Part shown: positions 1 to 17,633 of the stretch, piece by piece
How the letters are laid out: the number at the start of each line of letters is the position of its first letter
How positions within the stretch are numbered: the stretch's first letter is position 1
Source of the DNA: a virus
Taxonomy: Duplodnaviria > Heunggongvirae > Uroviricota > Caudoviricetes
DNA: 36,135 bases
Virus record (IMG/VR): IMGVR_UViG_2563366968_000009
Strand: one strand, 5' to 3'
Position numbers and translations under genes: made by a program
The notes under the pieces: model-generated
Told to the model about the DNA's origin: nothing
Seen by the model: only the letters and a program-made list of their open reading frames with translations
The model's database searches: none

Positions 1-1362
1 ATGTTTAAACCGGAACTCCTTTCCCCGGCGGGAACGCTGAAAAATATGCGTTACGCTTTCGCTTATGGCGCAGATGCTGTTTATGCGGGCCAGCCGCGTT
101 ACTCCCTGCGTGTGCGCAACAACGAATTTAACCACGAAAATCTTCAGCTCGGCATCAATGAAGCCCACGCGCTGGGGAAAAAGTTTTATGTCGTGGTCAA
201 CATTGCACCGCACAACGCCAAGCTGAAAACCTTTATCCGTGACCTGAAACCGGTGGTGGAAATGGGGCCGGATGCGCTGATTATGTCTGATCCAGGGCTG
301 ATTATGCTGGTGCGCGAGCACTTCCCTGAAATGCCGATCCATCTCTCAGTACAGGCTAACGCCGTGAACTGGGCGACGGTGAAATTCTGGCAGCAAATGG
401 GTCTGACCCGCGTGATCCTCTCTCGCGAACTGTCACTGGAAGAGATTGAAGAGATCCGCAATCAGGTGCCAGATATGGAGATCGAAATCTTCGTTCACGG
501 CGCGCTGTGCATGGCCTACTCCGGTCGCTGCCTGCTCTCTGGCTATATCAACAAGCGCGACCCGAACCAGGGCACCTGCACCAACGCCTGCCGCTGGGAG
601 TATAACGTCCAGGAAGGGAAAGAAGATGACGTCGGCAACATCGTACACAAGTACGAACCGATTCCGGTGCAAAACGTTGAACCGACGCTGGGGATCGGCG
701 CACCAACCGACAAAGTGTTTATGATCGAAGAAGCCCAGCGTCCGGGCGAGTATATGACCGCGTTTGAAGATGAGCACGGCACTTACATCATGAACTCGAA
801 AGATCTGCGCGCCATCGCCCATGTTGAACGCCTGACCAAAATGGGCGTGCATTCGCTGAAAATCGAAGGCCGTACCAAATCTTTCTACTATTGCGCACGC
901 ACCGCGCAGGTTTACCGTAAAGCTATCGATGACGCAGCTGCGGGAAAACCATTCGATACCAGCCTGCTGGAAACCCTGGAAGGTCTGGCGCATCGTGGCT
1001 ATACCGAAGGTTTCCTGCGTCGTCATACTCACGACGATTATCAGAACTACGAATACGGTTATTCAGTTTCTGACCGCCAGCAGTTTGTTGGTGAGTTTAC
1101 CAGTGAGCGCAAGGGCGACCTCGCGGCGGTAGCGGTGAAAAATAAATTCTCCGTTGGCGACAGCCTTGAGCTGATGACGCCGCAAGGGAACATTAACTTT
1201 ACCCTTGAGCACATGGAAAACGCCAAAGGCGAAGCAATGCCGGTCGCACCGGGCGATGGTTATACTGTGTGGATCCCGGTGCCGCAGGATCTTGAGCTAA
1301 ATTACGCGCTGCTGATGCGTAATTTCTCCGGGGAAACCACGCGTAACCCCCACGGTAAGTGA
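1..1362 (+). CDS. yegQ: U32-family peptidase YegQ (tRNA hydroxylation protein TrhP), complete 453 aa
   Basis: Full-length ORF starting at ATG at position 1; protein recognised from memory as E. coli YegQ (U32 peptidase family). Located immediately left of the sRNA and prophage att site, as in the E. coli yegQ-ogrK locus. Confidence 0.9.
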   Translation: MFKPELLSPAGTLKNMRYAFAYGADAVYAGQPRYSLRVRNNEFNHENLQLGINEAHALGKKFYVVVNIAPHNAKLKTFIRDLKPVVEMGPDALIMSDPGLIMLVREHFPEMPIHLSVQANAVNWATVKFWQQMGLTRVILSRELSLEEIEEIRNQVPDMEIEIFVHGALCMAYSGRCLLSGYINKRDPNQGTCTNACRWEYNVQEGKEDDVGNIVHKYEPIPVQNVEPTLGIGAPTDKVFMIEEAQRPGEYMTAFEDEHGTYIMNSKDLRAIAHVERLTKMGVHSLKIEGRTKSFYYCARTAQVYRKAIDDAAAGKPFDTSLLETLEGLAHRGYTEGFLRRHTHDDYQNYEYGYSVSDRQQFVGEFTSERKGDLAAVAVKNKFSVGDSLELMTPQGNINFTLEHMENAKGEAMPVAPGDGYTVWIPVPQDLELNYALLMRNFSGETTRNPHGK

Positions 1363-1393: not shown

Positions 1394-1439
1394 TTCTTAG
1401 AAACCGATCACATACAGCTGCATTTATTAAGGTTATCAT
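1394..1439 (+). promoter_or_regulatory. Putative cyaR promoter: CRP-like half-site TCACA (1408..1412) in a 22-bp window centred about -42, -10 TATCAT (1434..1439)
   Basis: TATCAT lies 7 nt upstream of the proposed +1 G at 1447. The upstream 22-bp window has a good TCACA half-site and a weak TTAGA half-site at class-II spacing. CyaR is known to be CRP-activated. Confidence 0.4.
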
Positions 1440-1446
1440 CTGTTTC

Positions 1447-1533
1447 GCTGAAAAACATAACCCATAAAATGCTAGCTGTACCAGGAACCACCTCCTTAGC
1501 CTGTGTAATCTCCCTTACACGGGCTTATTTTTT
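1447..1533 (+). ncRNA. cyaR: Hfq-dependent small RNA CyaR (RyeE), about 87 nt; 3' terminator overlaps the prophage att core
   Basis: Sequence GCTGAAAAACATAACCCATAAAATGCTAGCTGTACCAGGAACCACCTCCTTAGCCTGTGTAATCTCCCTTACACGGGCTTATTTTTT matches my recollection of E. coli CyaR. It contains a C-rich anti-SD-like CCACCTCCTTA element and ends in a hairpin (CCTGTGTAA/TTACACGGG) followed by a T-run ending at 1533. Location between yegQ and ogr matches the E. coli cyaR position. Confidence 0.7.
1507..1533. other. attL: attL core, 27 bp AATCTCCCTTACACGGGCTTATTTTTT (reverse complement of the P2 att core as recalled)
   Basis: Identical 27-mer recurs at 33591..33617 (attR). Between the two copies lies a complete P2-like gene set with int adjacent to the right copy and ogr adjacent to the left copy. 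Confidence 0.85.
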
Positions 1534-1596
1534 ACGCGTAATACAATGAAATAAAAGGATTTATTTCTGGTCACGTCCACACATTGACCACATCGA

Positions 1597-1622
1597 CAAA
1601 AAAGCCCCTCGACTGAGGGGCT
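1597..1622 (-). terminator. Rho-independent terminator downstream of ogr
   Basis: Perfect inverted repeat GCCCCTC-GACT-GAGGGGC (1604..1621), preceded on the plus strand by AAAAAA (a U-run after the hairpin on the minus strand), 13 bp past the ogr stop codon. Confidence 0.6.
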
Positions 1623-1634
1623 TTCTGTTTGTAA

Positions 1635-1853
1635 TTACATCCACATAATTTGCTGCCCTGACGGCAACGGGTGCGGCCTTACGGCGTGGACTTCTCCCGG
1701 CTTCACGATGTATCGCTGTACCGACTCATAAGTGATGAACGTGGCGCTGCAATTCACGTTCTGACACTGGTGATAACGCTCTTTTGTCGTGTCAGTGATA
1801 TAGCGGCTTGTACGCGCATGTGCGGCATGCTGGCATAAAGGACAATGAAACAT
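1635..1853 (-). CDS. ogr: Ogr, zinc-finger late-gene transcription activator (72 aa)
   Basis: Protein MFHCPLCQHAAHARTSRYITDTTKERYHQCQNVNCSATFITYESVQRYIV... matches P2 Ogr from memory, with a C4 zinc finger. Start placed at the internal ATG preceded by GAGG 8-9 nt upstream rather than the longer track ORF (1635..1916). Confidence 0.85.
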   Translation of the reverse strand: MFHCPLCQHAAHARTSRYITDTTKERYHQCQNVNCSATFITYESVQRYIVKPGEVHAVRPHPLPSGQQIMWM

Positions 1854-1934
1854 CGCGAGCACCTCTTCCGGTTTTGTTGATGGTGCCATTTTAGTTAATT
1901 TATCCTTATAAAACAAACAGATAAAATAAAAACA

Positions 1935-3098
1935 TCACTCATCATCTTCTGTTTCGTACTCCACATCAGAAAGCCTAACCTCAAGCTCTAAGGACGTCGT
2001 GAAGCCGCTATTATTCAGAAAATGTGTCACCTTAGTGATTGTCCAGTCCTGCTCGTCTATGACGCGCTTAAAGCCTGACACTTTGACCGGCGTTTCCGTG
2101 TAAATATCTGCCCGACCAGTAGCCAGACTGATGGAGAACTCCGCAACGCCCCGTTGCAGCTTATCCCACTTTGCCTGAGCGGCGCGCATGGCCTGCGCTT
2201 TTGTGGCATATACCGTAGTCAGGGCAAAAACGTTGTCAGCTTCACCGGCCATGTATTCACCTTCGCGCGCTTCCGGTACTTTTGGCGCTTTCTTCTGCGT
2301 GACCGGTTTCGCTTTGGGGTGCTCCAGTGCGCGCAGGTGTTTCTCTTTCTTTTTGCGTTTCAGTTTTACCTTCTGCTTTTGCGGCTTCGGGTCTTTGGTG
2401 TGTAACCACTTTGCCGTTACGCCGGTGTAAGCTCCACGGTCAGCAATCGCAAAATGATGACGGTCGCCGTCGCTGCGGGTGATGGTAATCTGCGGGATTT
2501 TTTTACCGCTGGCCGTCACCCCCTGCCCCGCTTTGAGAAACAGCAGTTTTCCCATTTTTACCGACACCTCACCGCCGTTGCGTTCAGCAAGGCGGGTCAG
2601 GAATTTCGCATCAGACTCCTGCGACTGGTCGATGTGCGGAATTTTAATTCCGGCCAGTGACGGAGCGACACTGGCTTCCAGCCTGTTACGGGAGGCTATC
2701 GCCTCAACAATCGCGCCGAGCGTGGTGTCATGCCAGGAGCCTTCCCGGCGGGAATTAAGCGTCCCGCGGAAATCTGCACTCCGGGCGCGGATGGTAACCA
2801 CATCCGGCGCGCCCCGGTGTTCAACCTCATCAACGGTAAATTTCCCTTTGCATACCAGGGCAAAACCTTTCCAGCCGATATACACCGTCAGGACAGCGCC
2901 ACGAATCGGTAGCCCGACCTGCCCGTCGGCGTCGTTCAGTTCAATATCAAGCTGGTCAGCCTCAAAGCCCCGGTTATCCGTCAGGGTCATGCTCATCAGA
3001 CGGTCGCTGATATTGCCGGTAATATCCCTGCTGTCGAGCATCAGCATGTAATCCGGCGTCAGCGTACTGCCTGCATCAAATGTCAGCGCATCCAGCAT
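1935..3098 (-). CDS. D: Tail protein gpD (387 aa)
   Basis: Length and position (between ogr and U) match P2 gpD; overlaps the U stop codon by 1 nt. Confidence 0.85.
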   Translation of the reverse strand: MLDALTFDAGSTLTPDYMLMLDSRDITGNISDRLMSMTLTDNRGFEADQLDIELNDADGQVGLPIRGAVLTVYIGWKGFALVCKGKFTVDEVEHRGAPDVVTIRARSADFRGTLNSRREGSWHDTTLGAIVEAIASRNRLEASVAPSLAGIKIPHIDQSQESDAKFLTRLAERNGGEVSVKMGKLLFLKAGQGVTASGKKIPQITITRSDGDRHHFAIADRGAYTGVTAKWLHTKDPKPQKQKVKLKRKKKEKHLRALEHPKAKPVTQKKAPKVPEAREGEYMAGEADNVFALTTVYATKAQAMRAAQAKWDKLQRGVAEFSISLATGRADIYTETPVKVSGFKRVIDEQDWTITKVTHFLNNSGFTTSLELEVRLSDVEYETEDDE

Positions 3099-3577
3099 TA
3101 TCCCGCCTCCGTCATACCCGTGAATTTAGTCGCTATACTGCCAGCCTTACCGATGAGCGATTCCGCCTGTTTACCGATATCGCCATAAAGCGCGGCCAGT
3201 GATTCATCAACGCGGGTGAGCGACAGCGTAAAATCAATTTTCCGGGGTGTGCCGTCTGCAAAGAAAATACTCCCTGTTTCACTCACCTTGCTGATGACAT
3301 ACATACCGTAAATCATGCCGGTGCCATCCAGCAACGGCCACGCCCGGCCTTCCTCTGCCATCAGTCTGAGCGTGGTCATCGTCAGCTTGCCGCCGGTCAG
3401 TTCGGGATAAAGCACACCGGCAAGCGTCATGTTTTCCTCACCCACACCTAGAAACTGGTAGGCATCCCGTTTACCGATACGGGAATTTGACGGCCAGCGA
3501 TAATCTGATTCACGCTGCATGGTCTGGTGTGGCAGCGTCTGGCGCATAAAAACAAACATCCCTAACGCGAGCATCAT
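3098..3577 (-). CDS. U: Tail protein gpU (159 aa)
   Basis: Length and synteny match P2 gpU. Confidence 0.85.
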   Translation of the reverse strand: MMLALGMFVFMRQTLPHQTMQRESDYRWPSNSRIGKRDAYQFLGVGEENMTLAGVLYPELTGGKLTMTTLRLMAEEGRAWPLLDGTGMIYGMYVISKVSETGSIFFADGTPRKIDFTLSLTRVDESLAALYGDIGKQAESLIGKAGSIATKFTGMTEAG

Positions 3578-3591
3578 TTTTCATCACCTCC

Positions 3592-6039
3592 TTAACCGTC
3601 ATGCATCATGCTGGCACGGGCGCGCGCACGTTTATCCCGCTCGTATTTTTCGAGCGCATCCTGTAACTGGCGGTCAAGCTGTGTCCCCGGCGCAGTACCA
3701 CCCGTCAGGCTGATGTGATATTCGTTTTTACTCTGGTCCACATAAGAGCGGCCAGCCGGTGCCGTAACCGGCTGATAAGCCTGATAACCTGCATAAGAGC
3801 TGGTCGCCGGAATATAACCACCGGTGCCATACGTGGCGGCATGAGTTCTGGCGGCTGTCTGGTCAAGTGTGTCTGACTCTTTGTTGATGAACCCGAGCTT
3901 TTCCAGTACCCAGTCAATGCCGCTGCGTAATTTGTTGAACGCATTAAGCGGCAGCATCAGCGCGTCAGCCAGTGCCTGCCCGAACATGACGCCCGTGTCA
4001 CGGCAACGGTTCAGGGTGTCCTGGGTGGCTTTGACCGGGGCAATCAGGTTTTTAAACCACTGCCACGCAGCCTGTAACTTTTCACCCAGCCAGTCAAACA
4101 CCGGCTTAAGTGGCGTGAACAGTTCTCCCACCGGCGCAAATGCCGCTTTCAGCCCTTCCACCACACCGCCAAAGAATGCGCTGACAGGCTCCCAGTATTT
4201 ACGGATAAGTAACGCTCCGGCGACAATGGCGGCCACCACGGCCACTACCGGCCAGCTAATCGCCCCGATGGCCGTCATAACGGCACTGCCAACCGTCGTG
4301 AAAATTGCCCCCATTGCGCCTGCTGCAGCAATGATGGCATTGATGCCGGTGATAACCGGCCAGGCTACAAGACCAATGGCACCGATGATGCCAGTAAGCG
4401 CCAGTGCGCCACCGGCAATGAGGCCGATGGTTGACGCCAGTGATTTGTTTTTCTGGATCCAGCCGTCGAGTTTTAACACATACTTTGTGGCCGTCTGCGT
4501 GAGCTTACGCAGTGCGCCTTCCTGCTGGTCAAACAGGTCAGTCCCCACCGCCTCATAAGCGGACTGAAACTCTTTAAAGTCACCGCCGAGGTTGTCCTGC
4601 ATGATATTTACCAGCTCGGCGGTCTTCCCGTCTGAGGCTTTAAACGCAGCGGTCAGTTTGTCCAGCTTTCCGGTTGAGGCGGCAGTCATCAGCACGGCGG
4701 CGGCTGAGCTGGCCTCCTCCCCGAAAATAGTTTTCATGTATTCAGCCTGCTGGGCAGTACCGAGCCGGTTTTTCTCAAAACTGGCCTGCATTTCTTTCAG
4801 AATGGTAAATATTGGCCGGGTGTTTCCCTTGCTGTCTGAGGTTTTCACTCCAAGCTCTTTGAGTGCATCCCATGCTTTTCCCGTCGGTGCCTGCAGGCGG
4901 CTTAACACGGCACGGCTTCCCGTCCCCGCCATTGAGCCTGTGATTTTTGCATCATGCAGCGCCCCGACCATTGCGGCGGTTTCTTCAATGCTGACACCGG
5001 CATTTTTTGCCACAGGTGCGGCATAGGTCAGCGCATCGCTCATGCCGTCAAAATCGGCGGCGGTTTTGTTCATCGTCATGGAGAGAACATCCCCGATATG
5101 AGCGACCTTATCGTTTGAAAGCTGAAAGGCGGATTTCATCCCCATCAGCAGGGCGGCGTTTTCTTCCATCGTGCGGCGGTTCGCCAGCGCCATATTCAGC
5201 GTGACCGGCGTTGCCGCCTGAATGGCATCAACATCCCCACCCGCTTTCGCGATGATTATCTGTGCACCGGCCGCATCATCCGCCGAGGCGGCGGTATTGT
5301 CGCCGAGCTGGCGCGCCTGTTTGCGTAGTGCGGTCATTTCGGCGGAGTCTTTTGCCACTCCGAGCACGGCCTGCAATTCTGAGTTTTTCTGCGCAAACTC
5401 ATAACCGGGCATCAGCAACTTAACTCCGGCCATCGTTCCCGCCGCCGCAATCCCCACACCGGCAGCGCCCACTGAGGCCATATTTCCGGCCAGTTCCTTT
5501 CCGGCCTGATAACGCTGTTTTACTGCATTAAGTTTTGCCTGTTGCGCACTGACACGCGCCAGCGCGTCACGCTGCCGGTTAAGCTGTGCGGTGGTTTCAC
5601 TGATACGGTTTTTCAGTCCCTGCTCATCATGTGCAAGATTGCGGGTATTAATTCCCACAGCGGCCAGTTCCCGCTGCTGGCGCTTAACGGAATCCGTCAG
5701 GCGGTTATATTTCGCCTGTAAGTCCTCCGCCGCACGCTTTGCGGATTCCAGCACTTTCGCCTGAGCACGGGTCGGACGTTCAGTGTTTTTAAACTGTGTG
5801 GCAAGTGCTTCGGCTTCCTGCCGTGCCTTTTCAAGTGCATGACCAGTCACGGCAAGCTGTGCGCTGGTCTTGCGAAATCCCTCAATACGGGATGCGTGAC
5901 CGTTCAGCTCGCGCAGTGATTTTTGTGTTTCCCGGATATCCCCCGACAGCGACTTACTCGCTGTGCGGATGGATTTAAACGGGCGGGATGCCTGGTCAAC
6001 AGCCCTGAGCAATACCTGTAATTTTACATTGTTACTCAT
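3592..6039 (-). CDS. T: Tail tape measure protein gpT (815 aa)
   Basis: Long Ala/Gly-rich, coiled-coil-rich protein with a hydrophobic central segment; 815 aa as in P2 gpT; follows E/E'. Confidence 0.9.
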   Translation of the reverse strand: MSNNVKLQVLLRAVDQASRPFKSIRTASKSLSGDIRETQKSLRELNGHASRIEGFRKTSAQLAVTGHALEKARQEAEALATQFKNTERPTRAQAKVLESAKRAAEDLQAKYNRLTDSVKRQQRELAAVGINTRNLAHDEQGLKNRISETTAQLNRQRDALARVSAQQAKLNAVKQRYQAGKELAGNMASVGAAGVGIAAAGTMAGVKLLMPGYEFAQKNSELQAVLGVAKDSAEMTALRKQARQLGDNTAASADDAAGAQIIIAKAGGDVDAIQAATPVTLNMALANRRTMEENAALLMGMKSAFQLSNDKVAHIGDVLSMTMNKTAADFDGMSDALTYAAPVAKNAGVSIEETAAMVGALHDAKITGSMAGTGSRAVLSRLQAPTGKAWDALKELGVKTSDSKGNTRPIFTILKEMQASFEKNRLGTAQQAEYMKTIFGEEASSAAAVLMTAASTGKLDKLTAAFKASDGKTAELVNIMQDNLGGDFKEFQSAYEAVGTDLFDQQEGALRKLTQTATKYVLKLDGWIQKNKSLASTIGLIAGGALALTGIIGAIGLVAWPVITGINAIIAAAGAMGAIFTTVGSAVMTAIGAISWPVVAVVAAIVAGALLIRKYWEPVSAFFGGVVEGLKAAFAPVGELFTPLKPVFDWLGEKLQAAWQWFKNLIAPVKATQDTLNRCRDTGVMFGQALADALMLPLNAFNKLRSGIDWVLEKLGFINKESDTLDQTAARTHAATYGTGGYIPATSSYAGYQAYQPVTAPAGRSYVDQSKNEYHISLTGGTAPGTQLDRQLQDALEKYERDKRARARASMMHDG

Positions 6040-6459
6040 TCGTGTTTCCGCTTCGCCGGAGCGCCTTTTCGCGCCATGTGATGAGTTCGGTCAGGCTCAT
6101 GGGATACAGTTCTGATGGCGGCCAGTGAAATATCACTGCCACATCCGCCATCAGGTCATCGACCGAGAGATTTTTCGGAAACGTTACTGCACCGAGTTCG
6201 GCGACAAAAAACCGACCACCTTACCGGCCAGCGCCACAAGGTCAGGCAGCTCCAGCGCGGCGACCTCCTGCTCAGTCAGCATCGGTGCCGTCATGCGCGG
6301 CAGCACTTTAATCAGTGCATCGACTTCGGAGTTTGCGACCGCAGCCAGACTGACACCGCGCAGCGTCCCGGCATTGGGTTTCATCAGCGTGACCTGTTCG
6401 ATAACCTGCTCACCACGCTTGACCGGATTGTCCAGGGTAATCACATTTTCTTTGTTCAT
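6032..6459 (-). CDS. E+E': gpE+E' fusion produced by programmed -1 ribosomal frameshift (142 aa predicted)
   Basis: Hand translation: mRNA reads ...GGT TTT TTG TCG...; after a -1 slip at T.TTT.TTG the reading frame continues for 57 codons to a TAA at 6032..6034, overlapping the T start codon. Total of 85 + 57 = 142 aa equals the P2 E+E' length. Confidence 0.75.
6184..6459 (-). CDS. E: Tail assembly chaperone gpE (91 aa)
   Basis: 91-aa ORF immediately upstream of T, as in P2; contains a slippery TTTTTTG 19 nt before its stop codon. Confidence 0.85.
   Translation of the reverse strand: MNKENVITLDNPVKRGEQVIEQVTLMKPNAGTLRGVSLAAVANSEVDALIKVLPRMTAPMLTEQEVAALELPDLVALAGKVVGFLSPNSVQ
6205..6211 (-). 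promoter_or_regulatory. Slippery heptamer TTTTTTG (on minus strand) for the E/E' -1 frameshift
   Basis: Plus-strand CAAAAAA at 6205..6211 gives TTTTTTG on the coding strand, in the frame T.TTT.TTG relative to E. Confidence 0.7.
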
Positions 6460-6515
6460 GGTTTTCTCACTTCTGAATCAGGGTTAACCGGTCAGCCAGG
6501 CTGACCGGATGAAAA

Positions 6516-7034
6516 TCACAGGCCGATATTGCGGCGGTGTTGCTCCAGCCGGTCGACGCCGTTCACCTTCTCAATCATGTTGATGGTGTCAATTTCGACC
6601 AGCTCCTTACCGTCCATCGTCAGCCGGAAATAGGTGCAGACCACGGAGATTTTCGACTCGGTGTCTTCTCCCTGTTTACCCTCGCCGGTGTCGATTTCTT
6701 TCTGACGGCCACGCATGACCACTTCGACGGCCACCGTTTCGCCGGTATCGTCACGCTGGTAAGAGCCTGCAAAACGAATCGGCACGGCATCCACACCGGT
6801 TGCGGCGTAAAGTTCCCAGATAACCGAATCCGGGAAGCCCCCGAGCGACCACTCCATTGACAGCGCATCGTCATCAAGGCCGAGGTCTACCGGTGCGCTG
6901 CCGTTCATCCCCGCACCGCGATAGTTTTCGAGCTTACGGGTCAGTTTTGGCAGCGTGACGGACTTCGCGACGCCCTGATAGCTGTAGCCGTTCAGAAAGA
7001 CGTTCATTAACTTGAGTTTGCGCGGCATTGCCAT
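6516..7034 (-). CDS. FII: Tail tube protein gpFII (172 aa)
   Basis: Length and synteny match P2 FII. Confidence 0.85.
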   Translation of the reverse strand: MAMPRKLKLMNVFLNGYSYQGVAKSVTLPKLTRKLENYRGAGMNGSAPVDLGLDDDALSMEWSLGGFPDSVIWELYAATGVDAVPIRFAGSYQRDDTGETVAVEVVMRGRQKEIDTGEGKQGEDTESKISVVCTYFRLTMDGKELVEIDTINMIEKVNGVDRLEQHRRNIGL

Positions 7035-7046
7035 CGGTCAGACTCC

Positions 7047-8237
7047 TTAATTGCTGTTAACCGAGGTGACCAGATTTGCCAGGTATTTATCGGTAATACG
7101 CTGGCGCAGGGTCAGGTTTTCAAGAGGAGGCACCGGGGTATAGTCGTAGTCGATATACAGTTTTCCGGCCTTGAGGGTTTCCGCATCGTTGGATTCTTCG
7201 CTGAACCAGCAGGTCGCATCCACGATATAGCCGTTTGTTTTCAGCTCACGGAATTTGGCATTGATACCGTCAACGATGTCGCGAATCAGCGTTGCGGTGA
7301 TGGGCTTGTCCACCGCCCACATGTGCGCCTCAGCCATCGTGTCGGCCAGCACCTGCGCGGTGCGGGTGTAGTTTTCAAAGAGGAACAGCGGGTCATCAGA
7401 GCAGGTACGGTTACCCCAGAAGCGGAAACCGTCGCGGCGAATCAGCGTAGTGACGCCTGACTCGTTAAGCAGGTCAGCATCAGTGCCGGACTCCTGCAAA
7501 TCCCAGAATACAGATGCGCTGATGCCGGTAACACCGTTTACCCCGACGTTGGACAGCGTTTTATGCCAGCCCTGCTCCTGGTCGATTTTAGCGCGCAGAC
7601 CCAGCGCACGGGCGGTGGCATACGCGGTGGCGGTGGTGCTGGTGACCGTATCCCATGCGAGGAAATCCGGCCAGATGACCATCAGCTCACGCTGGCTGAA
7701 ATTCTGGCGGTAGGCTTTCACCTCGGAAATGGTTTTACAGCCCCATGCGCTGATATACCCGAAAGCGCGCAGCTTCTGACAGACAGATGCCAGTGCAACA
7801 GCCACCTCTTTGGTGTCCAGTCCCGGTACGCCGAGAATACGCGGTTTAACACCGGTTACCGACTCCGCCGCCAGCAGGGCTTTCAGTCCGGTGTACTGAC
7901 CGTTTTCGTCGGTGGTGCCGATGATATTGGAAACGGTCTGCGCAAGTTTCGTTTCTTCGTCGTCGCCGGTGCCGTCTTCAACACGCACGACAACGGTGAC
8001 CGGTTTTGACTGGTCAGCGATGGCCTGCAACGACGCCGCCAGCGTGCCTTTTTTACCAGCCTTTGCAATTGCGCTCTGCACATTGGTAATCAGCACCGGT
8101 TTATTGAGGGGGAAGGTTTCCGCATCCGCATCGCTGGCCGTGCAGACCATGCCGACAATGGCAGTGGATACGGTGGAAATGACGCGGGTGCCGTCGTTAA
8201 TCTCCAGCACCTGCACGCCGTGATGATAGTCACTCAT
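7047..8237 (-). CDS. FI: Contractile tail sheath protein gpFI (396 aa)
   Basis: Length and synteny match P2 FI. Confidence 0.9.
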   Translation of the reverse strand: MSDYHHGVQVLEINDGTRVISTVSTAIVGMVCTASDADAETFPLNKPVLITNVQSAIAKAGKKGTLAASLQAIADQSKPVTVVVRVEDGTGDDEETKLAQTVSNIIGTTDENGQYTGLKALLAAESVTGVKPRILGVPGLDTKEVAVALASVCQKLRAFGYISAWGCKTISEVKAYRQNFSQRELMVIWPDFLAWDTVTSTTATAYATARALGLRAKIDQEQGWHKTLSNVGVNGVTGISASVFWDLQESGTDADLLNESGVTTLIRRDGFRFWGNRTCSDDPLFLFENYTRTAQVLADTMAEAHMWAVDKPITATLIRDIVDGINAKFRELKTNGYIVDATCWFSEESNDAETLKAGKLYIDYDYTPVPPLENLTLRQRITDKYLANLVTSVNSN

Positions 8238-8331
8238 CCGTTTAACTCCGTGGTTAATGGGTGCAACTATTTTCTGTTGTGCGAAGCATGAGACGCTATT
8301 TGACCTGGCTGGTCAGTGAATGAAACAACAG

Positions 8332-8361
8332 ATAAAGAAAAGACGGGCAATCAGCCCGTCT
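8332..8361 (-). terminator. Putative terminator at the 3' end of the cargo operon
   Basis: Hairpin AGACGGG-CAATCAG-CCCGTCT (8341..8361) followed on the minus strand by a U-rich tract (CUUUUCUUUAUC). A second hairpin CGGGGGAG-AAAAAAC-CTCCCCCG at 8412..8434 lies just 3' of the stop codon. Confidence 0.45.
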
Positions 8362-8448
8362 TTAAATCACAAATTTTGACAGTTTTTGATTTGCATTCGA
8401 GAATAACAGTTCGGGGGAGAAAAAACCTCCCCCGCCCACGTAACTTGC

Positions 8449-9498
8449 TTAACTACATGAATCAATGATGTTTTTCACAAGCTTATTTATTTCAGATTCA
8501 TTAGTGCCAAATTCACCCGCTTTAAAATTAATACCTCGCGCTGCAAGATTTCTTTTTATTTTACTTACTTCACTCAGCATAAAGTCATAATTTAACGTTT
8601 TTTCTTTAATGCCCTTTGAATATATTACAGGGAAGGCTTTCATTAATGCCGCATATCCTGTGAGTTTACTTAAATAATATTCCCTTGGTGTATTCCACTC
8701 AACTGGATAGACATTGCTAATAGCATTAAAATAATTCAATATTATTTTTTGAATTACAGCGTCATTCTCTTCGATAAAATAATCGCGGAATATACACTGA
8801 TTATTTGGCGTTAATGGCAGATTCATTTTTAACATTCTTGCATCATCATCAGGTTTTTTTGAAATATGTTGGATAAGATATTTAATGAAAGTGCTTTGTG
8901 ATAATGATGCATTATCTTGGTTTATTTCCTTTTTCCCAAGCATTTTTAGCTTTTTATAAAAAGGGGAATCAGGATTACTGTTTATTCCTCTCGCGATTTC
9001 GTGGCATGTTTTTTGTGGACTCCTGCGTTCTGCAAGCGAAAATAAATCATATACAATTGATGGATTTACACGAGTTTGTTTACTATTAATAATTGAGAAA
9101 ACATAGGCTTTTTCTTCATCAGTAAGATCAAACATTAAAACAACAGGTAGTTCAAAAAGTTTAGCATTAGAGGAATTTTTAATTCCCCATAATCTGTGTT
9201 GACCATCGATAACATCACCTATAACCACTTCAGACTCAAAGTAAAAATAGGTATCATCCATTTTTAAATTGGATGAATCATCGACGGAAATTATGATCGG
9301 CGTTGGAAAAGTCGCATCCGGCTCACTAGTGTACTTTGCGATTTCTGAAACTCTTGATGATGAAATATCCCTTTGCACACCAAATTCGAAATCTCTGCGA
9401 CGATCAACTCTAACTATATCGAGCAAGTCAATGGCTCTTATTGATGTTAAATAGAAAGTACCGATTGGTTGATTAACTTCAATATATTTCAACTTCAT
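8449..9498 (-). CDS. DGQHR-motif protein (DndB-like, predicted ParB/Srx-fold), 349 aa; cargo gene 2
   Basis: Motif VIDGQHRLWG at residues 96-105 plus an N-terminal Q-R dipeptide (VQRD, residues 41-44), as in DndB-type proteins. AAGGAG Shine-Dalgarno 7 nt upstream; start ATG overlaps the stop of the upstream membrane gene (ATGA). Visibly AT-rich compared with flanking tail genes. Confidence 0.7.
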   Translation of the reverse strand: MKLKYIEVNQPIGTFYLTSIRAIDLLDIVRVDRRRDFEFGVQRDISSSRVSEIAKYTSEPDATFPTPIIISVDDSSNLKMDDTYFYFESEVVIGDVIDGQHRLWGIKNSSNAKLFELPVVLMFDLTDEEKAYVFSIINSKQTRVNPSIVYDLFSLAERRSPQKTCHEIARGINSNPDSPFYKKLKMLGKKEINQDNASLSQSTFIKYLIQHISKKPDDDARMLKMNLPLTPNNQCIFRDYFIEENDAVIQKIILNYFNAISNVYPVEWNTPREYYLSKLTGYAALMKAFPVIYSKGIKEKTLNYDFMLSEVSKIKRNLAARGINFKAGEFGTNESEINKLVKNIIDSCS

Positions 9499-10094
9499 AT
9501 CATAACTCCTTTACCATCATCAGTTACTTCATTGGTTGCCATTGTCTGATCTATAACTATTGCATCTTCTTTTTCTATATAACTTTCATCATTTATATCT
9601 GTATGTGCAGTAGCGTTAAGTTTTAATACGCCAAATGTATAGCATACTAAGACTATAGAAATAACATAAATTATAGGTTGAGTTAAACCGAATGTTAAAT
9701 CATTAGAATTTGGTAGGATTAAATCCTTTGATTGCGTAGCAGCGTATATTATTCCTGATAATTGTAATAAAATAATCAATAATATTATTGATATGATTTT
9801 TATTGTTTTAAATTCAAGTTTTGAACTAAAAAAAGTTACAAACATAGGCCCAAGGGCAGAGGCTATTAATGCAATGGAAAATGTGTAAAAACTTCCTGAC
9901 GAACCTTCTATGTAAATAGATTGATCTAGTGGTATTGAATGTGAATAATATCTTATGATTATATTTGCAATAATCCCCATTTGCCCACAAACAACTGTAA
10001 AAACGATCCAAATAAAAAACTCTCTTTTGTTTTTTCTTATCGCATCGAATGGATAGGAAAGGGATTTCTTTAATATTTGCCAGTCTTTACTCAT
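9495..10094 (-). CDS. Predicted 4-TM inner-membrane protein with acidic C-terminal tail (about 199 aa); cargo gene 1
   Basis: Four hydrophobic segments (approx residues 29-50, 72-92, 101-122, 142-160 of the track ORF). The track ORF begins at a GTG (10103); I prefer the ATG at 10094 (MSKDWQ...). AT-rich; first gene of a coupled two-gene operon. Confidence 0.6.
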   Translation of the reverse strand: MSKDWQILKKSLSYPFDAIRKNKREFFIWIVFTVVCGQMGIIANIIIRYYSHSIPLDQSIYIEGSSGSFYTFSIALIASALGPMFVTFFSSKLEFKTIKIISIILLIILLQLSGIIYAATQSKDLILPNSNDLTFGLTQPIIYVISIVLVCYTFGVLKLNATAHTDINDESYIEKEDAIVIDQTMATNEVTDDGKGVMI

Positions 10095-10498
10095 GTTATG
10101 CACTCTTTATTTAAACTTATCAACAATATGTAACTATCAATTAATAACCGTTTACTCTTTTCAAATAATAAAATTATAATCATCAAAAAAATCGACATTA
10201 TAATTAGACAACATTTTTAACACTAAGTGATACCTGACTCATGTCTCCAGACCCTAAAACCGCTTGCATAATTTAGAATGATAATACTACCTTATAGTAG
10301 GCTTGTGAACTTATATAGCATGAGTCAAGTAATTAATAAATCACTTATTTCGTTTTTTTTGCATTTGGTCGCTGTGATTTTTTCATAAACAAACTTACAA
10401 TGATGTCAGCAATGTCTGCTCTTGGCACAGAGCGGACTGTCAGATTAGTTTTTACTCTGTGCCATAGATGTATAAACTCACATCAGAGCTTATACAAT

Positions 10499-11077
10499 TT
10501 ATTGTGGCATTTCAGGCCATTCTATATCCGGAGCATCTTCCGGCTGAATGCGATTCAGTAGCACACGGTATTTTTTCCAGTGTGTCAGGCTTAACTTTTC
10601 TTCCTCAGTTGCCATATCCAAATCGACAGCATCCTGCAGCGTGGCAATAATTTCACCTGCATATGCAATCTGCTCTTTCTTCTGAGACTCAGCCGCTCTG
10701 ACAAGTGCATCACGCTCTGCATTCTCATCATTCACCCACGCATTTCCGTTCCATTTCTGATAATCCCCCTCCGGGGAAATGGCTGTCACGTCTGGAGATA
10801 ATGCGCCAAGTTCAGAAATATAAATGGCTGCTCCCGTTTTCGTTTCGTATACGGTCTTTCCGCGATGGTCTTCCATCAACTCCCATTTCATTTCATCTGC
10901 ATTGAAAACGGCTGCATAACCAGCCGGTATATCAGGCGGCGCAATATCTGTACTGTTTGCAGGCAAACCTGTATACGGAGGAATATATGCATCACTTTCG
11001 CCAATAAATTCATTGGTTCCATCAAGTAAATTGAAAACGCGGATAGTTTGTGCTTCTGCACTCATTCTGAAAGCCAT
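10499..11077 (-). CDS. G: Tail fiber assembly chaperone gpG
   Basis: Position immediately after H with TAATG stop/start overlap, and size, match P2 G (Tfa family). Confidence 0.8.
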
Positions 11078-13695
11078 TATGCAAGCCTCACAATATAGTT
11101 AAATGCGATGTTTTTGACGGTGTTTTCGGTATTACCTGTAGCATTAACGGTAATAGAGTGCCCGTGTGAGCCAATAGCAACCGTGTGTGAATGTGCACCA
11201 ATACCAACCGTATGATTATGTGCGCCAATATCTACCGTGTGGGCATGATTCCCGGCAGCTCCTGATGTGCCATTAAACGATGGGTTGTCAAAGCCTGTTT
11301 TACCGGTTTCACCATTAGTATTGGCATTCCCTCTGTAAATGGTATGTGTATGGTTACCAGTGGTATTAGTGGTTTTTGTTCCGTAGTTAAACGTACTGAC
11401 TGTCTTCGTCCCGTAATCAAATGAACTGGTCGTTTTCGTCCCTAAATCCGTATTTGACGCACTGGCACTGTGAGTATGCGATTTAATCCCGTCCTGTTCC
11501 TGTGACAATACGGCACGCCCACTGGCGGGTTTGCCCTTGATTGTCCAGCCGCGCATATCTGGAATAACACCAGAAGGATAGACAATAGCCAGTTTCGGAT
11601 ATGCAGCCTTATCAAACGTCTGACCCTGCATAATTGCATAGCCTGCAGGTGGTGTATCTGATGGCCACGGCAGCGGAACACCAGGCGGAAACGCTTCAAT
11701 ATCTTTCGTCCCGTCAAAGGTTACGCCGTTAATTGTCCTTGCCGTTTTCAGCTTTGTTGCTGTAGCAGCATTGCCGGACAGTTCGCCTGAAAGACCGGCG
11801 CTGAAGGTTTGTTTCGCCGCCCATGTCTGGGCTTCGTCAATAATTGGCACACGTCTTGTGGTGATCGTGCGACTTCCCGGATTTCCTGAAATACGCACCA
11901 TAAAAAAGCGGTAGTTCGCTTTACTTACAGTGCTGCGCCATACATGCATTGAGCGCCCCGCACCGGAATCATCACTCGGACCAACTGAGATGTTTATCAG
12001 GTTGCCATCAATGACGCCCCAGTCCATACCTTCGGGAATGTTGGTCATGTTATCAAGCCGAACGGTTATCAGACTGCCCGGCACAAAGTCGTAGGTCTGC
12101 CAGTCCAGGCTGGAGAGTTTTGCCACTGCACCGCCGATACCCAGATTCAGGGGAAGTGAATACGAGGTGTAGACTTCCCGCCATTCGCTCCACGAGCTGC
12201 CGGTATAGACGCGCTCAAACGTGCGACCTTTAAGGGTTGCACCTGTTCCGGCAGTTGTATAACGCTGCCATACGTTAACACCATCAAAGCGCCTCAACAC
12301 TTCCAGAATCCCGAGGACTGTCACGCCGTTTCCGTCCAGTATTGGACCGTTGGTCGCTTTACCTGTAACGCTGTAAATACCTGGTGAAGTCACCTCATTC
12401 AAATCCCCGTCGTAATAACGACTCTCTGACTGATGACCGACTCTTAACCACGGTTCCCACTGTGGATTTGATGCATCCCAGCTTGCCGCAAGGCAGCGGA
12501 CATACATATTTCCACGGCGAGTGGTATAACGTTGCGTTCTTCCATAATTCCCGCCTTCGAGGATCTCAAGCATCCCCTGAGCAAAGCCGCCTTCCTCTGG
12601 ATAATTGCGTTCATATGAAGCTATAGCCGAGCTACTGTTACGCCATAAACCAAGATGCTCGGCGGCTCCAAGCGTATTCAGGTCTATAGTCGTACTCAAA
12701 GGGCGGGTAGCAGATTGAGTGTGACGCCATACGCCCCACGGACCATCAGTGCCATTCCACTTATTGGCGAGTTTACGCATGTAAACATTGCCGTCTCTCG
12801 TGGTAAAGCGTTGCGTACCTGCAAAATTGCCGGCAGCAAAAACCTCAAGCACACCGACAGCATTATCTTCCGGGAAATTTTTCTCCAGTGTTGCGTTAGT
12901 TGAGGTAGCTTTAGACCAGATCCCCAGATAAGCCTTAACGGGACCAAATGTATTCAGGTCGGCATCAACCGGCATTTCGCCATTGTTTTTCATAAACGTC
13001 AGACTGGTAACGCCAACATTGTCCAGAAAAGCTGATTTATCCTGGATATCTGCACCATTCTGATTTTTCGCCAGACGTGAATTTGCGTTGTCATTTGCTG
13101 CCTTGACCGCTTTTGGCGTTGCCGCCAATGACTCACTGGTGCTGTTTGTTGCACTGCTTAACTGAGTAAAACCTTTTTCTGTCAGCGTGGCGTCAGGATG
13201 GCGGCGGGACTGCTCATGTTCTGCGATTTTGTCATCGACGTAATCCTGCGTCGCCATCACTGTGCTGGCATCAATACTCAGCTCAACGGACGCCACGTTA
13301 CTGACAATAATAACCATGCGGCAGGTCTGCGCACGCCCGGAGCCTTCAGCGAGTTCAGGCTTATAGCTTTCTGCCATGTTGGCGACCGCAATCAGTGTTC
13401 CGGCATCGTCATACAGACCAAGCTCACGCATCCAGAAGCCGCCCACTTCGGGCGGTACAACCAGTTCAGCCACGATATAGTTTTTATTCTTATTATCCAC
13501 GCTGACTTTATTCAGAGCGTGACGCCAGACCTCATGCACCAGTTTCGTCTGACCGGCATCCGGCACCGGCAATTTGCCATTACCGTCACCCACGGCCATT
13601 GCAGACAGGTTTACTTTTTTCCCGCCGGGGACAGTGGCGGCTGCCAGCTTCGCGGCTCCGGCAGTAGTGATAACGGTTTTAAATTTCGTGCTCAT
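11077..13695 (-). CDS. H: Tail fiber protein gpH (872 aa) with divergent distal half
   Basis: N-terminus ([20 protein letters not shown]...) matches P2 H from memory. The central region has three related ~60-aa repeats; the C-terminus has periodic GxHxHTV repeats. Confidence 0.85.
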
Positions 13696-13705
13696 TGTTT
13701 CTCAC

Positions 13706-14236
13706 TTATCCGGGATAAACAGTAATAACATCACCATCACAGACCACACCGCCTGTATACAGATAGCCGGGAATGTCCTGGATAATGTTCAGGCCGATAA
13801 GGTGGCGACTTGCGGGTTTGGCATCGGCAATCAGCCGTTCCATTTCCAGATACATTTCCTCTGTGATACCGCTTTCCAGCACACCGATATCAAGACGAAA
13901 GGTTCCGGCCGGGTCGTTTGTCTCCCACCATTCCTTTACGTTAATGAGATAGCCGAGCGGCTCCACCACACGCCGGATTGCGCCGACAGTGCCTTTATGA
14001 CAGTGGATGAAATAGGCATCGCGGATAACGGCGCGTTTTGTCGCTTCCGGCCACTTTTCATCCCACCTGTCGACCGAAAACGCCCACGCCAGCCACGGCA
14101 GCAGATTTGCCGGGCAGGTGTCCGGGTTCCACAGCTCACGAATACTGACCGGCGTTTTTTCAATTTCCGCACAGGCTTTTGCGGCGGCGACCTCAAGCGG
14201 TGATGAGCCGGTCGGCAGCAGGCGCGAATCACTCAT
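13706..14236 (-). CDS. I: Baseplate assembly protein gpI (176 aa)
   Basis: Length and synteny match P2 I. Confidence 0.85.
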   Translation of the reverse strand: MSDSRLLPTGSSPLEVAAAKACAEIEKTPVSIRELWNPDTCPANLLPWLAWAFSVDRWDEKWPEATKRAVIRDAYFIHCHKGTVGAIRRVVEPLGYLINVKEWWETNDPAGTFRLDIGVLESGITEEMYLEMERLIADAKPASRHLIGLNIIQDIPGYLYTGGVVCDGDVITVYPG

Positions 14237-15137
14237 CCGAGCCTCCGGTCACGACGCGGTATTCGGTACAGAAAGACGCCTGCGTATTGTTGAGCACGAT
14301 GTCGGCCAGCGGTGCAGCCAGTTCGACACGCTGCACGCCTTCCACATGCAAAGCGGCATAAATGGCAGACAGACGGATGTCGCGCCCCAGCCGGTGCTGT
14401 GCCGTGATATACGCTTCCAGTTTTTTCACGGCGGCAGCGCGGATGGGTTCGCTTTCGGGACCAGGGTAAAGGTAAAGCGTGGCGTTTATCTGGTATTCAA
14501 CAATGGCGGCAGACTGCACGGTCACGCGGTCGGCCACCGGCCTGACGTCCTCGCCATTCAGGGCGTTACGCACCACCGCCAGCAGGTCTTCGGATGCGAC
14601 GCCGTTATTTTCACGTGACAGCACAGAGATGGTGACGCAGGCCGGAGAAGGACTGGTGACAGAGATATCCGCGACACGCCCGTCGGCACTGCGACCATGA
14701 TACTGATAGGCTCCCACCGACCCGGCGACGCTTAAACCTTCAAACGCCTGCTGAATACGCAGACGATAATCGGTGTCAGATTCCATCACTGCCGGTGTCG
14801 GCGGGATGGTCGAATCATCTGCCGGGGTGATAATCAGGCGCGTGGTGTTGTAATTGGCACCAATCACATCAAGGTCGTTACCGGCGGCACAGGCCAGCAT
14901 CACCGCCCGTGCGGCCTTATTCACACGCTGACGCCAGATAAGCTCACGATAAGCATTTTCCTCCAGCAGTTTGACGAGAGGCTCGGATTCCAGCGTCAGG
15001 GTACGGGCGACCGCCTCCTGCTGGTCTTCCGGGTAAAGGGAAATCAGTGTCGCCTTGCGTTCAGCGAGAATGGTTTCAAAGTCCAGCTCCTCGACCACAT
15101 CCGGTGCGGGTAGCTGGTTCAGGTCGATAATCGGCAT
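14229..15137 (-). CDS. J: Baseplate protein gpJ (302 aa)
   Basis: Length and synteny match P2 J. Confidence 0.85.
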   Translation of the reverse strand: MPIIDLNQLPAPDVVEELDFETILAERKATLISLYPEDQQEAVARTLTLESEPLVKLLEENAYRELIWRQRVNKAARAVMLACAAGNDLDVIGANYNTTRLIITPADDSTIPPTPAVMESDTDYRLRIQQAFEGLSVAGSVGAYQYHGRSADGRVADISVTSPSPACVTISVLSRENNGVASEDLLAVVRNALNGEDVRPVADRVTVQSAAIVEYQINATLYLYPGPESEPIRAAAVKKLEAYITAQHRLGRDIRLSAIYAALHVEGVQRVELAAPLADIVLNNTQASFCTEYRVVTGGSDE

Positions 15138-15141
15138 GGTT

Positions 15142-15489
15142 TCAACTCACAGGGATGGTTAACGAAAGTGGCTGGCCGGTGTCGTTGTGCTGGCCGGTTA
15201 GCGTAACTGTCATTCGCCCGTCAAAGCTGCGCGCCGTGGTGACGGATGACAGGGTGACGCGGGGTTCCCATTTCAGCACCGCCATGTAACAGGCGACCTT
15301 AATCTGCAACTCAAGCGCCGGGGTCTGCGGCTGGTCAATCATTGATGCCAGCAATGAGCCGTAATCACGACGCATCACCCGTGAGCCGACCGGCGTGCGC
15401 AGGATATCGCCGATACTCTGGCTGATATGCTCAAGGTCAGTGACAGTCAGGCCATCACTGCGATTCATTCCGAGATAACGTGCTGTCAT
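15142..15489 (-). CDS. W: Baseplate wedge protein gpW (115 aa)
   Basis: Length and synteny match P2 W (gp25-like). Confidence 0.85.
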   Translation of the reverse strand: MTARYLGMNRSDGLTVTDLEHISQSIGDILRTPVGSRVMRRDYGSLLASMIDQPQTPALELQIKVACYMAVLKWEPRVTLSSVTTARSFDGRMTVTLTGQHNDTGQPLSLTIPVS

Positions 15490-16121
15490 AGAGGACTCCC
15501 GGTTGTGCCGCCGCTGTCGCCGGGGTGTTTATGGGTATGCAGTACCTTACCGTTTGATGAGAGTTCACCGCCGGTGTGTTCAATGTTGCCGCGCATCGTC
15601 CCGCCCTTCTGCACTTCCAGCGTGCCGGTAGTCAGCTTGTTTGTGCAGACCACCTCCGGCGTGTCCAGGGTGACACGGGTTGACGCTTTCACCGTGACCA
15701 CCGGTACCGTGGCAGTAACAGAATCAGAAGCCGTCACGCTGGCCGTTTTAATTCCGCTTACCGTGAGTGCACTGGTTTCGGGTTCATACTCAATCACCGC
15801 CCCGTCAGAGAAACGGATATGCAGGGCATCAGCCGACGCAGACGGCGCAGGGTTATCGCCGGAATAAATCCCCGGCAGAACGAACGCCGTGTCGAGTTCA
15901 CCGCCCACGGCCAGAATCAGCACCTGTTCCCCCACGGAAGGTGCCCACCATGTGCGCGAACGACCGGCGCGCTGGGTCAGCCACTGCAGCCAGTCGGTGC
16001 ACATGCCGCCGGTCTGCACACGGCAGCGACCGGCGTTAAGGTCGGTTTCGACGACAAGGCCGGTGCGGATCATGTTGCGCAGTGCGCGCGCGAGTTCCTG
16101 AATATTTGCGAGAGTGTTCAT
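15486..16121 (-). CDS. V: Baseplate spike protein gpV (211 aa)
   Basis: Length and synteny match P2 V. Confidence 0.85.
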   Translation of the reverse strand: MNTLANIQELARALRNMIRTGLVVETDLNAGRCRVQTGGMCTDWLQWLTQRAGRSRTWWAPSVGEQVLILAVGGELDTAFVLPGIYSGDNPAPSASADALHIRFSDGAVIEYEPETSALTVSGIKTASVTASDSVTATVPVVTVKASTRVTLDTPEVVCTNKLTTGTLEVQKGGTMRGNIEHTGGELSSNGKVLHTHKHPGDSGGTTGSPL

Positions 16122-16187
16122 AACGGGAAGGATGCCGCCGGGTCATACCGGCGGCAATGTGACGATGAGGTGTCGGGAATGGCACAA

Positions 16188-16640
16188 CTAACGGTCGAGG
16201 TGAGCCAGGATAATCTCTTCAATCATCTGCACATCCTCACCGGTAAAGCCGAGCAGAGGACGCGCCGGATAATCAATTTTCTTACCGTCTTTCCGGGTTT
16301 CTTCCGACAGACCGAACTGATGCACACTGGCGATTTTCGGCGACTTCCCGCCGTAAAATTCCATTGATGCCTGCTCCGGGCTGGCGCGGATATGCAAAAA
16401 ACGACTGGTGATAAGTTTCGCAAACATTTTTCGCTTAACGCGACCGGTCTTTTTTCTGGCGCTCTGCTGCTGGCGTGGCGCATAGGGTGTGCCGTCCGGG
16501 GCTTTCTGTGTCATCACCCGACGCTGCTGACTCTGCCGCAGGCGTTTCGCCAGTTCGGCACTCAGTCGCCGACGCCCTGACGGTGACAGCGACTCAATAA
16601 GTCCGGTCAGCCGGTCTTCAAAACGCTTAAACTCATTCAT
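16188..16640 (-). CDS. S: Tail completion protein gpS (150 aa)
   Basis: Length and synteny match P2 S. Confidence 0.85.
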   Translation of the reverse strand: MNEFKRFEDRLTGLIESLSPSGRRRLSAELAKRLRQSQQRRVMTQKAPDGTPYAPRQQQSARKKTGRVKRKMFAKLITSRFLHIRASPEQASMEFYGGKSPKIASVHQFGLSEETRKDGKKIDYPARPLLGFTGEDVQMIEEIILAHLDR

Positions 16641-17100
16641 CCCACTTGCTCACCAGTTCGCCATTGATATACAGCTCCATCGGGCGGGTAACCGGCTCCG
16701 GCGGCGGAGGTTCCGGGATATTCTTCACATGCAGCGCGCCGTCCACCTCACTGACCAGCGTGCGCTCGGTCAGCATCAGGCTGATGCTGATATCAAAGCT
16801 GCTGTCATTGTTGATGTCTGCATAAAACGTGAAGCCCTTTTTCTGGCCTGCGTCGGTGGTCATGATGTCGGGCTGATTTTCCCGCAGCCACGCCAGCACC
16901 GGCACGATGAGCAGGTCAAAATCACCGGTAAAGTCGGTCACAATGACATTGAGCGTGTAACGCTTTTCGAATGACAACGACGCCGCCAGTGTGGAGGCAA
17001 TACTCCCGTTATCCACGAATATCCGCAGCATATCGGGGTTAGTTTTCAGCACCGTGACGGCATCAGTCAGCGCCCTGCGCAGGCTGTCGGGTTTGAGCAT
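16633..17100 (-). CDS. R: Tail completion protein gpR (155 aa)
   Basis: Length and synteny match P2 R. Confidence 0.85.
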   Translation of the reverse strand: MLKPDSLRRALTDAVTVLKTNPDMLRIFVDNGSIASTLAASLSFEKRYTLNVIVTDFTGDFDLLIVPVLAWLRENQPDIMTTDAGQKKGFTFYADINNDSSFDISISLMLTERTLVSEVDGALHVKNIPEPPPPEPVTRPMELYINGELVSKWDE

Positions 17101-17353
17101 CGTTTTCGTCCTGACAGTGTTTAATCATTTTTACCTGGCTGGCACAGCGTGCCAGCGCGTTCTCAAGTTGCCGGATATCGGCACTTAAATCGCCGTTCGT
17201 CTCCGGGTCACTGCCCGGTATCGGGCAAAGACTCACTTTCGGGCAGGCGTTGTGGACAATCACTGGCGTCGGTGCAGGCGGGGCGCTGGTGCAACCGGCG
17301 CACAGCATCAGGCAGGTCAGCACCGTACCAGCGGCGAAAATCTTCGTTTTCAT
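17063..17353 (-). CDS. lysC: LysC, Rz1-like outer-membrane lipoprotein spanin (96 aa), embedded out of frame in lysB
   Basis: MKTKIFAAGTVLTCLMLCAGC... has a signal peptide and lipobox (LCAGC) followed by a Pro-rich segment. Starts inside lysB in another frame and extends into the start of R. Start placed at the internal ATG rather than the longer track ORF. Confidence 0.75.
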   Translation of the reverse strand: MKTKIFAAGTVLTCLMLCAGCTSAPPAPTPVIVHNACPKVSLCPIPGSDPETNGDLSADIRQLENALARCASQVKMIKHCQDENDAQTRQPAQGAD

Positions 17354-17633
17354 TAAGTAACCTCGTGATGGTTTTCTCGCGCTGTGCTTCACGCTTCGCG
17401 GCGTTCTCCAGTTCCTGACGCAGTGCCACCTGCGCCAGCTCGTTTTTGTCTGCCCTGGTGAGGGCAACATGAAGCTGATTTTTCAGCATGGTGATGGTCG
17501 CCTGCTGCCCACTGGCGACGTTGTTCGCCCTGTCCAGCGAGGCGCGCAGGCTGGCGTTTTCATGCTTCACCAGAAACAGCGCCGCCACCGCCAGTGATAA
17601 CAACACAACCAGCACAATCATCAGCTTTGACAT
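17208..17633 (-). CDS. lysB: LysB, Rz-like inner-membrane spanin (141 aa)
   Basis: N-terminal TM helix followed by a coiled-coil; size and synteny as P2 LysB. Confidence 0.8.
   Translation of the reverse strand: MSKLMIVLVVLLSLAVAALFLVKHENASLRASLDRANNVASGQQATITMLKNQLHVALTRADKNELAQVALRQELENAAKREAQREKTITRLLNENEDFRRWYGADLPDAVRRLHQRPACTDASDCPQRLPESESLPDTGQ

Follow-up and report, generated by a model that had tools for sequence, protein, structure and literature searches.

The attachment core of a P2-type prophage overlaps the terminator of the small RNA gene cyaR in Escherichia coli, at a site that may carry the mark of an older integration

The window considered here is the whole stretch of 36,135 nucleotides held in IMG/VR virus record IMGVR_UViG_2563366968_000009, in which a prophage is flanked on one side by yegQ and the small RNA (sRNA) gene cyaR and on the other by yegR and yegS (Table 1). 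CyaR/RyeE (RF00112) is the sole Rfam family detected in the window, and its match, on the plus strand from 1445 to 1530, covers the model in full (positions 1-85 of 85) with a bit score of 100.7 (gathering score 47; E 3.5e-19). The arrangement of yegQ upstream of cyaR is found by tblastn in nearly all of 120 loci from other genera. A candidate promoter precedes the gene, consisting of a CRP-like site, TTAGAAACCGATCACA (also written TTAGAAnnnnGATCACA), and a -10 element, and the TTAGAA...GATCACA half-sites are kept at the same distance in most of the approximately 120 cyaR loci of other Enterobacterales. Transcription of cyaR is described in the literature as cAMP-CRP-dependent, and regulation of targets such as ompX as Hfq-dependent.

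Within the folded transcript a small hairpin (1483..1496) exposes an ACCACC loop, and the 3' end is formed by an intrinsic terminator with an 11-bp stem (-15.9 kcal/mol, z -7.05), a hairpin that the terminator scan also finds, followed by the tail UAUUUUUU (U, A, six U). The attachment core of the prophage, the 27-mer AATCTCCCTTACACGGGCTTATTTTTT, takes in the last two nucleotides of the terminator 5' arm (AA, 1507..1508), the loop UCUCCC, the entire 3' arm and the U-tract. An earlier reading is corrected here in that only the final two bases of the 5' arm belong to the core, the nine others (1498..1506) being host-only. The initial annotation of this DNA had proposed an ~87-nt CyaR transcript with a CRP-type promoter, a C-rich loop, a terminator hairpin and a U-run, of which the att core forms the final 27 nt. 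The Rfam match agrees with the identity of the transcript, the structural elements are all seen in the fold, and the overlap of the core with the transcript end is an exact sequence match; the promoter is best described as a putative one, read from the sequence and supported by the conservation of its half-sites across genera.

Table 1. Features of the window, with positions, strand and the basis of each assignment.
Feature	Position	Strand	Basis
yegQ (tRNA 5-hydroxyuridine modification protein), left neighbour of cyaR	1..1362	+	ORF list; annotation in matching E. coli genomes
Putative cyaR promoter: CRP-like site 1397..1412 and -10 TATCAT 1434..1439	1397..1439	+	Sequence reading
cyaR (CyaR/RyeE sRNA), 87 nt	1447..1533	+	Rfam RF00112 and fold
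CyaR intrinsic terminator: 5' arm 1498..1508, loop 1509..1514, 3' arm 1515..1525, U-tract to 1533	1498..1525	+	Fold, terminator scan
att core, cyaR-side copy (attL)	1507..1533	+	Exact repeat; identical to P2 attP core
P arm: predicted IHF site ~1532..1565, predicted Int arm-type site 1569..1596	1532..1596		Gapless transfer of P2 annotation
P2-like (Peduovirus) prophage body, 32,057 bp; ogr, D and tail genes on the left through to cox, C and int on the right	1534..33590		Identity, ORFs, Pfam
Terminator of ogr and the F operon	1601..1624		P2 annotation, scan, fold z -4.4
ogr, late-gene activator, 72 aa	1635..1853	-	Pfam Ogr_Delta, E 1.1e-21
int, tyrosine integrase, 337 aa	32498..33511	+	Pfam Int_N and Phage_integrase
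P' arm: two predicted Int arm-type repeats (GTGTCCACA) 33477..33503, predicted Cox sites ~33501..33574	33477..33574		Transfer from P2 annotation
att core, int-side copy (attR), without host 5' arm	33591..33617	+	Exact repeat; fold
Host flank resembling a decayed P2 P arm	33618..33679		Alignment versus shuffles
yegR, small lipoprotein gene, in a 40% GC island 33618..34405	33788..34105	-	Annotation of matching genomes
Degenerate core relic AATCCTCCATACTTGAACTGATTTTTT, 19/27, directly before ancestral cyaR-yegS spacer	34406..34432	+	Alignment
yegS, lipid kinase, ancestral right neighbour of cyaR	34520..35404	+	Annotation of matching genomes, tblastn

The prophage is approximately 97% identical to Peduovirus P22H1, pro147 and others, and is oriented with ogr adjoining cyaR and int adjoining attR. 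The integrase gene beside att, the Cox/C switch and ogr stand in P2 order, and Pfam supports Phage_Cox and a C-type repressor (HTH_3) in addition to the domains given in Table 1. In the P2 GenBank record, an IHF site, an Int P-arm site and the ogr terminator lie on one side of the core, and Cox sites and an Int P' arm within the end of int lie on the other, and transfer of that annotation gives the arm sites predicted here. The DNA downstream of the attL core is phage, as the initial annotation had it, comprising the P arm, the ogr terminator and ogr itself. The ogr terminator starts 68 nt past the CyaR tail and scores as a terminator on the plus strand too, so it could halt read-through from cyaR before this enters ogr in the antisense direction.

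Two positions of the prophage carry cargo genes. Between replication gene A and the portal gene, which is the old/tin position of P2, a 644-aa gene (25708..27642, minus strand) encodes a protein with matches to PDC-S39, a candidate defence family in PADLOC (E 1e-84), and to DUF7380 in Pfam. Two further genes (8449..10103, minus strand) occupy the Z/fun position of P2, flanked by the genes for the tail sheath and the tail fibre; their products are a 349-aa protein matching DndB (Pfam) and DpdB (PADLOC, E 1e-16) and a 202-aa partner without a match.

The 27-mer occurs exactly at two sites in the window, where chance would be expected to give none; allowing as many as three mismatches added no further site in the window, and 100 shuffles yielded no match. 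The same 27 bases are annotated as the attP core in P2 record AF063097 (24356..24382). When the left flank, one core and the right flank are joined, the resulting 354-nt attB is present at 100% identity, full length and uninterrupted, in at least 12 E. coli genomes; this empty-site comparison had been posed beforehand as a refutation test, and the rejoined site came through it intact. Conversely, the 385-nt attP obtained by joining the int side, one core and the ogr side is contiguous in phage genomes, with identities of 99.5% in P22H1, 99.0% in P22H4/9W/10W/P24C9 and 98.2% in P2. As both attB and attP can be rebuilt in this way, recombination took place inside the 27-mer or at its edges, although the point of strand exchange within it is unreadable from sequence because the two copies are identical. 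That the repeat is instead a target-site duplication or a chance repeat, formed without site-specific recombination, would account for the existence of a direct repeat, but this is extremely improbable when set against the annotated P2 attP core, the exact reconstruction of both attP and attB, the tyrosine integrase gene 80 bp from one core copy and the lack of any such match in 100 shuffles; with the P2 annotation and the two reconstructions, we consider it ruled out.

The reading adopted here, to which a probability of about 95% is assigned, is that the feature represents the junction of a P2-type (Peduovirus) prophage in the classical P2 site of E. coli, coinciding with the 3' end of cyaR. 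On this model, the phage tyrosine integrase would recombine the 27-bp attP core with a host sequence of the same 27 bp, in such a manner that the cyaR-side junction would restore cyaR with its terminator completed by core DNA and with only phage DNA downstream. The first features met beyond the restored gene would be the P arm, with its predicted IHF and Int arm sites, and then the ogr terminator, whereas the opposite junction would retain a core copy lacking both the 5' arm and the terminator fold. The participation of Int, IHF and Cox and the placing of strand exchange inside the core would follow what is known of P2. In the window, the attR core without the host 5' arm folds no better than shuffles (z -0.2), and the possibility that the core of attR or attP serves as a terminator for int was rejected, as the hybrid fold gives z -0.2 versus shuffles.

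The site is one that we take to be the preferred P2 site, 'locI', of Yu et al. 1989 and Barreiro and Haggard-Ljungquist 1992, in whose work the K-12 remnant is reportedly also described. A prophage in the 3' end of cyaR is an already known system: the paper on the E. coli W genome (PMC3032704), the only direct support met with in the literature searched, names 'cyaR RNA' as a P2 insertion site in its Table 2, which gives as its occupants Wphi2 in W, ogr-D' in K-12 and P2*B in B, and which also includes rybB, ssrA and tRNA genes among insertion sites. The target gene and the type of phage are the same as those of the present window; however, that table names only the site, without mapping the core to the terminator and without an older scar. 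The likeness to phage P2 itself extends to the identical 27-nt core, the attP region (98.2%, with the annotated IHF, Int arm and Cox sites at matching positions), the flanking of attP by ogr and int, and the ogr-D' remnant at the same place in K-12, whereas the prophage differs in being a relative of P2, approximately 97% identical in its tail genes, with other cargo at the two variable positions. More broadly, an att core lying across the 3' end of a gene for a structured RNA is shared with phage and island integrations in tRNA genes, in tmRNA (ssrA) and in other sRNA genes such as rybB and sdsR (ryeB), the last of which serves as a phage attachment site (PMC3333887). In such systems, as here, one junction re-forms the gene while the other keeps a displaced fragment of its 3' end, and repeated use of a site leads to nested, decaying copies. 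Unlike the acceptor or T arm rebuilt in tRNA-type integrations, the restored part of cyaR is a Rho-independent terminator and Hfq-binding tail.

P2-type DNA lies directly 3' of cyaR in 1,195 of 5,426 complete E. coli genomes, a proportion that is too high because K-12 derivatives are so numerous among them. Coverage of the reconstructed attB reaches at least 80% in 4,567 genomes, a figure that includes short K-12-type remnants, with pieces up to ~677 bp apart joined; as these remnants are counted there as well, the two totals should not be subtracted from one another. K-12 W3110 has the identical junction of cyaR, core, P arm and ogrK, followed by a truncated gene D pseudogene, and the locus is accordingly that of the K-12 ogrK remnant, as had been proposed from the letters of the window.

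Because the two cores are identical (27/27) and the core spans the end of the terminator, the sequence of CyaR is unaltered at the cyaR-side junction, and the earlier statement that the terminator is preserved after integration holds for the RNA sequence. Integration could still alter the efficiency of CyaR termination, the formation of its 3' end or the loading of Hfq, so that the phage would modulate an sRNA of the CRP regulon. Such an effect might be sought in the bases that immediately follow the U-tract, which change from G/ATGCATAA to ACGCGTAA, and in the second hairpin, with its plus-strand terminator score, that now stands 68 nt downstream. It is nevertheless quite unlikely, given that the transcript is identical through the six-U tract and that K-12, the strain in which CyaR was characterised, already carries the lysogen-type junction. 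Clones of the cyaR-ogrK-yegR region derived from K-12 yielded active CyaR (PMC9765468), which likewise argues against it. The view that the phage controls the 3' context of CyaR survives in part: the downstream DNA is indeed phage, but the RNA sequence is the same before and after integration, and CyaR expressed from the K-12 junction is active. From the sequence, integration is expected to be neutral for the CyaR RNA. That identity with the core would constrain the evolution of the phage is only indirectly supported; in Citrobacter, Enterobacter and Buttiauxella, P2-type arms adjoin terminator variants that are particular to the genus.

In most genera, and in Escherichia sp. E1V33, yegS begins approximately 92-130 nt past the loop of the CyaR terminator. 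At five other loci an insertion ends in another, partial copy of the terminator, which lies 79-83 nt ahead of yegS. The second copy matches at 23/27 positions in E. hormaechei (locus L021) and E. nematophilus (L065) and at 18/27 in a Pseudescherichia genome (L035), and is weaker in E. chinensis (L018) and in a Buttiauxella genome (L087). The inserts of approximately 1.9 kb that follow cyaR at L021 (Enterobacter hormaechei B56) and L065, each ended by the 23/27 copy of the terminator end, have no P2-type arm and thus represent a different element at the same site. At L021 both functional terminator arms resemble those of E. coli, as does the end of yegQ (98% identical), whereas the displaced copy is Enterobacter-like, a combination which suggests that the whole cyaR region of that genome was imported. 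Further insertions between cyaR and yegS, of approximately 4.3 kb and 0.55 kb, are found in Raoultella (L108, L117) and Enterobacter (L018, L115, L116).

In three Kluyvera loci (L052, L032 and L044) CyaR natively ends in the very 27-mer of E. coli and P2; L052 has no insertion, with yegS starting 92 nt later, and L032 and L044 have a 5' arm, AGCCCGTGT, that pairs perfectly with the 27-mer, where E. coli has a G.U pair. A C.A mismatch in the terminator at L087 and a G.U pair in that at L102 were considered as possibly supplied by phage, but unoccupied loci such as L007 and L067 have internal mismatches as well, so no conclusion is drawn from them. Taken across genera, the 3' end of cyaR appears, from these sequence comparisons, to be a general insertion hot spot in Enterobacterales, with genus-specific variants of the core.

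The host DNA to the right of attR has features of its own. The P2 genome aligns to the window beyond the attR core, up to 33676, yet from the first base of the core this DNA is the normal yegR-side flank in over 5,000 E. coli genomes. When compared with the P arm (1534..1610), the flank at 33618..33694 scores 12, against -20 +/- 5 for shuffles, with 0/5000 reaching 12. By the same scoring, true P2-type arms following cyaR in Citrobacter, Enterobacter, Buttiauxella and one further bacterium score 26-38, and 115 other cyaR flanks score -4 or less (median -22). The variant of the flank in the window is longer than the common E. coli one by approximately 14 bases, which bring additional matches to the arm. 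An exact 15-mer, CATTGACCACATCGA, is shared between 1582..1596 and 33662..33676; it belongs to the Int P-arm site of the P2 annotation and is unchanged in four aligned E. coli flanks. Upstream of the cores, the host and phage sequences (1430..1506 versus 33514..33590) have no similarity above chance, 864/5,000 shuffles being as good, and the extended homology around the cores is one-sided. The 10-mer with which the core opens, AATCTCCCTT, recurs at 33680..33689, between the arm-like segment and a strong hairpin (33693..33725), and apart from this and the two cores it is absent from both strands of the window; this third copy may be a trace of another core copy, or chance.

The island that begins with this flank has a GC content of 40%, compared with 54% for yegQ and 50% for yegS. 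It is bounded by the functional core and a decayed core, and is absent from Escherichia sp. E1V33 and most genera. Candidate remains of an integrating element inside it consist of the ~60-nt P-arm-like segment with its Int-arm 15-mer; Pfam searches found no phage gene there, and yegR has no Pfam or PADLOC match and no true phage homologue. The possibility that yegR is phage cargo gained no support: among 50,697 phage records, tblastn matched only ON470606 (a record with host flank) and a 2.4-kb junction fragment, which do not count as evidence for cargo. The 'phage' records ON470606.1 and AY639599.1 include host DNA (yegR and flank beyond attR); as excised prophages or cloned junctions they may lead a search for phage cargo astray. 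The distance from the attR core to yegS in the window is 902 bp, and the decayed core ends 87 nt before that gene; a count of 19/27 is reached at just one other position of the window (3555). The cyaR-yegS spacer of Escherichia sp. E1V33 aligns to the window from 34423 onward, with the relic in register with the E1V33 terminator. The relic is present at 18/27 in GF3-3 and in K-12, so that K-12 has three cores: a functional one, a truncated one (22/27) that ends ogrK-D', and the old relic.

The P-arm-like flank and the relic, together with the yegQ-cyaR-yegS order without yegR in most other Enterobacterales, suggest as the simplest account that the E. coli 'attB' is probably itself the mark of an older integration, where a P2-like element, now a fossil, formed its left junction, a proposal to which we give somewhat better than an even chance. 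The 3' half that the CyaR terminator has today would stem from an ancient integration, as would the decayed P arm and the low-GC DNA with yegR, and the displaced original 3' end of cyaR would survive as the 19/27 relic ahead of yegS. The retained arm-type site CATTGACCACATCGA might even contribute to the site preference of P2.

Alternatively, attB is pristine, and both the likeness of its flank to the P arm and the relic have arisen by chance or convergence. The relic is, after all, short, with a match of just 19/27 that is equalled at an unrelated position (3555); the island retains no phage gene, and no sequenced phage truly carries yegR, the two matches including host flank. Nor was a paper describing an older scar at the E. 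coli cyaR attB found in the literature searched, a search that left older P2 literature outside its range. We nonetheless regard a pristine site as the less likely reading. The arm similarity exceeds all 5,000 shuffles and all 115 unrelated cyaR flanks, and the shared 15-mer falls in an Int arm site that is annotated in P2. Chance would also have to place the relic in register with the E1V33 terminator, precisely at the start of the shared spacer, and to leave it in GF3-3 and K-12 as well. The DNA so bracketed has 40% GC against 50-54% in its neighbours, and five other loci present the same combination of an insertion and, 79-83 nt ahead of yegS, a further incomplete copy of the terminator.

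The P2 attachment site has been sequenced for decades, and the overlap of prophage and cyaR in the window is a correct re-identification of a textbook system. It nevertheless provides a clean example of how sRNA terminators, like the 3' ends of tRNA genes, are integration targets that are rebuilt upon insertion. If the E. coli attB is indeed the scar of an older P2-like integration, part of a conserved sRNA terminator and the orphan gene yegR would have entered E. coli with a phage, and the resident arm-type Int site beside attB would offer a testable reason for the site preference of P2.
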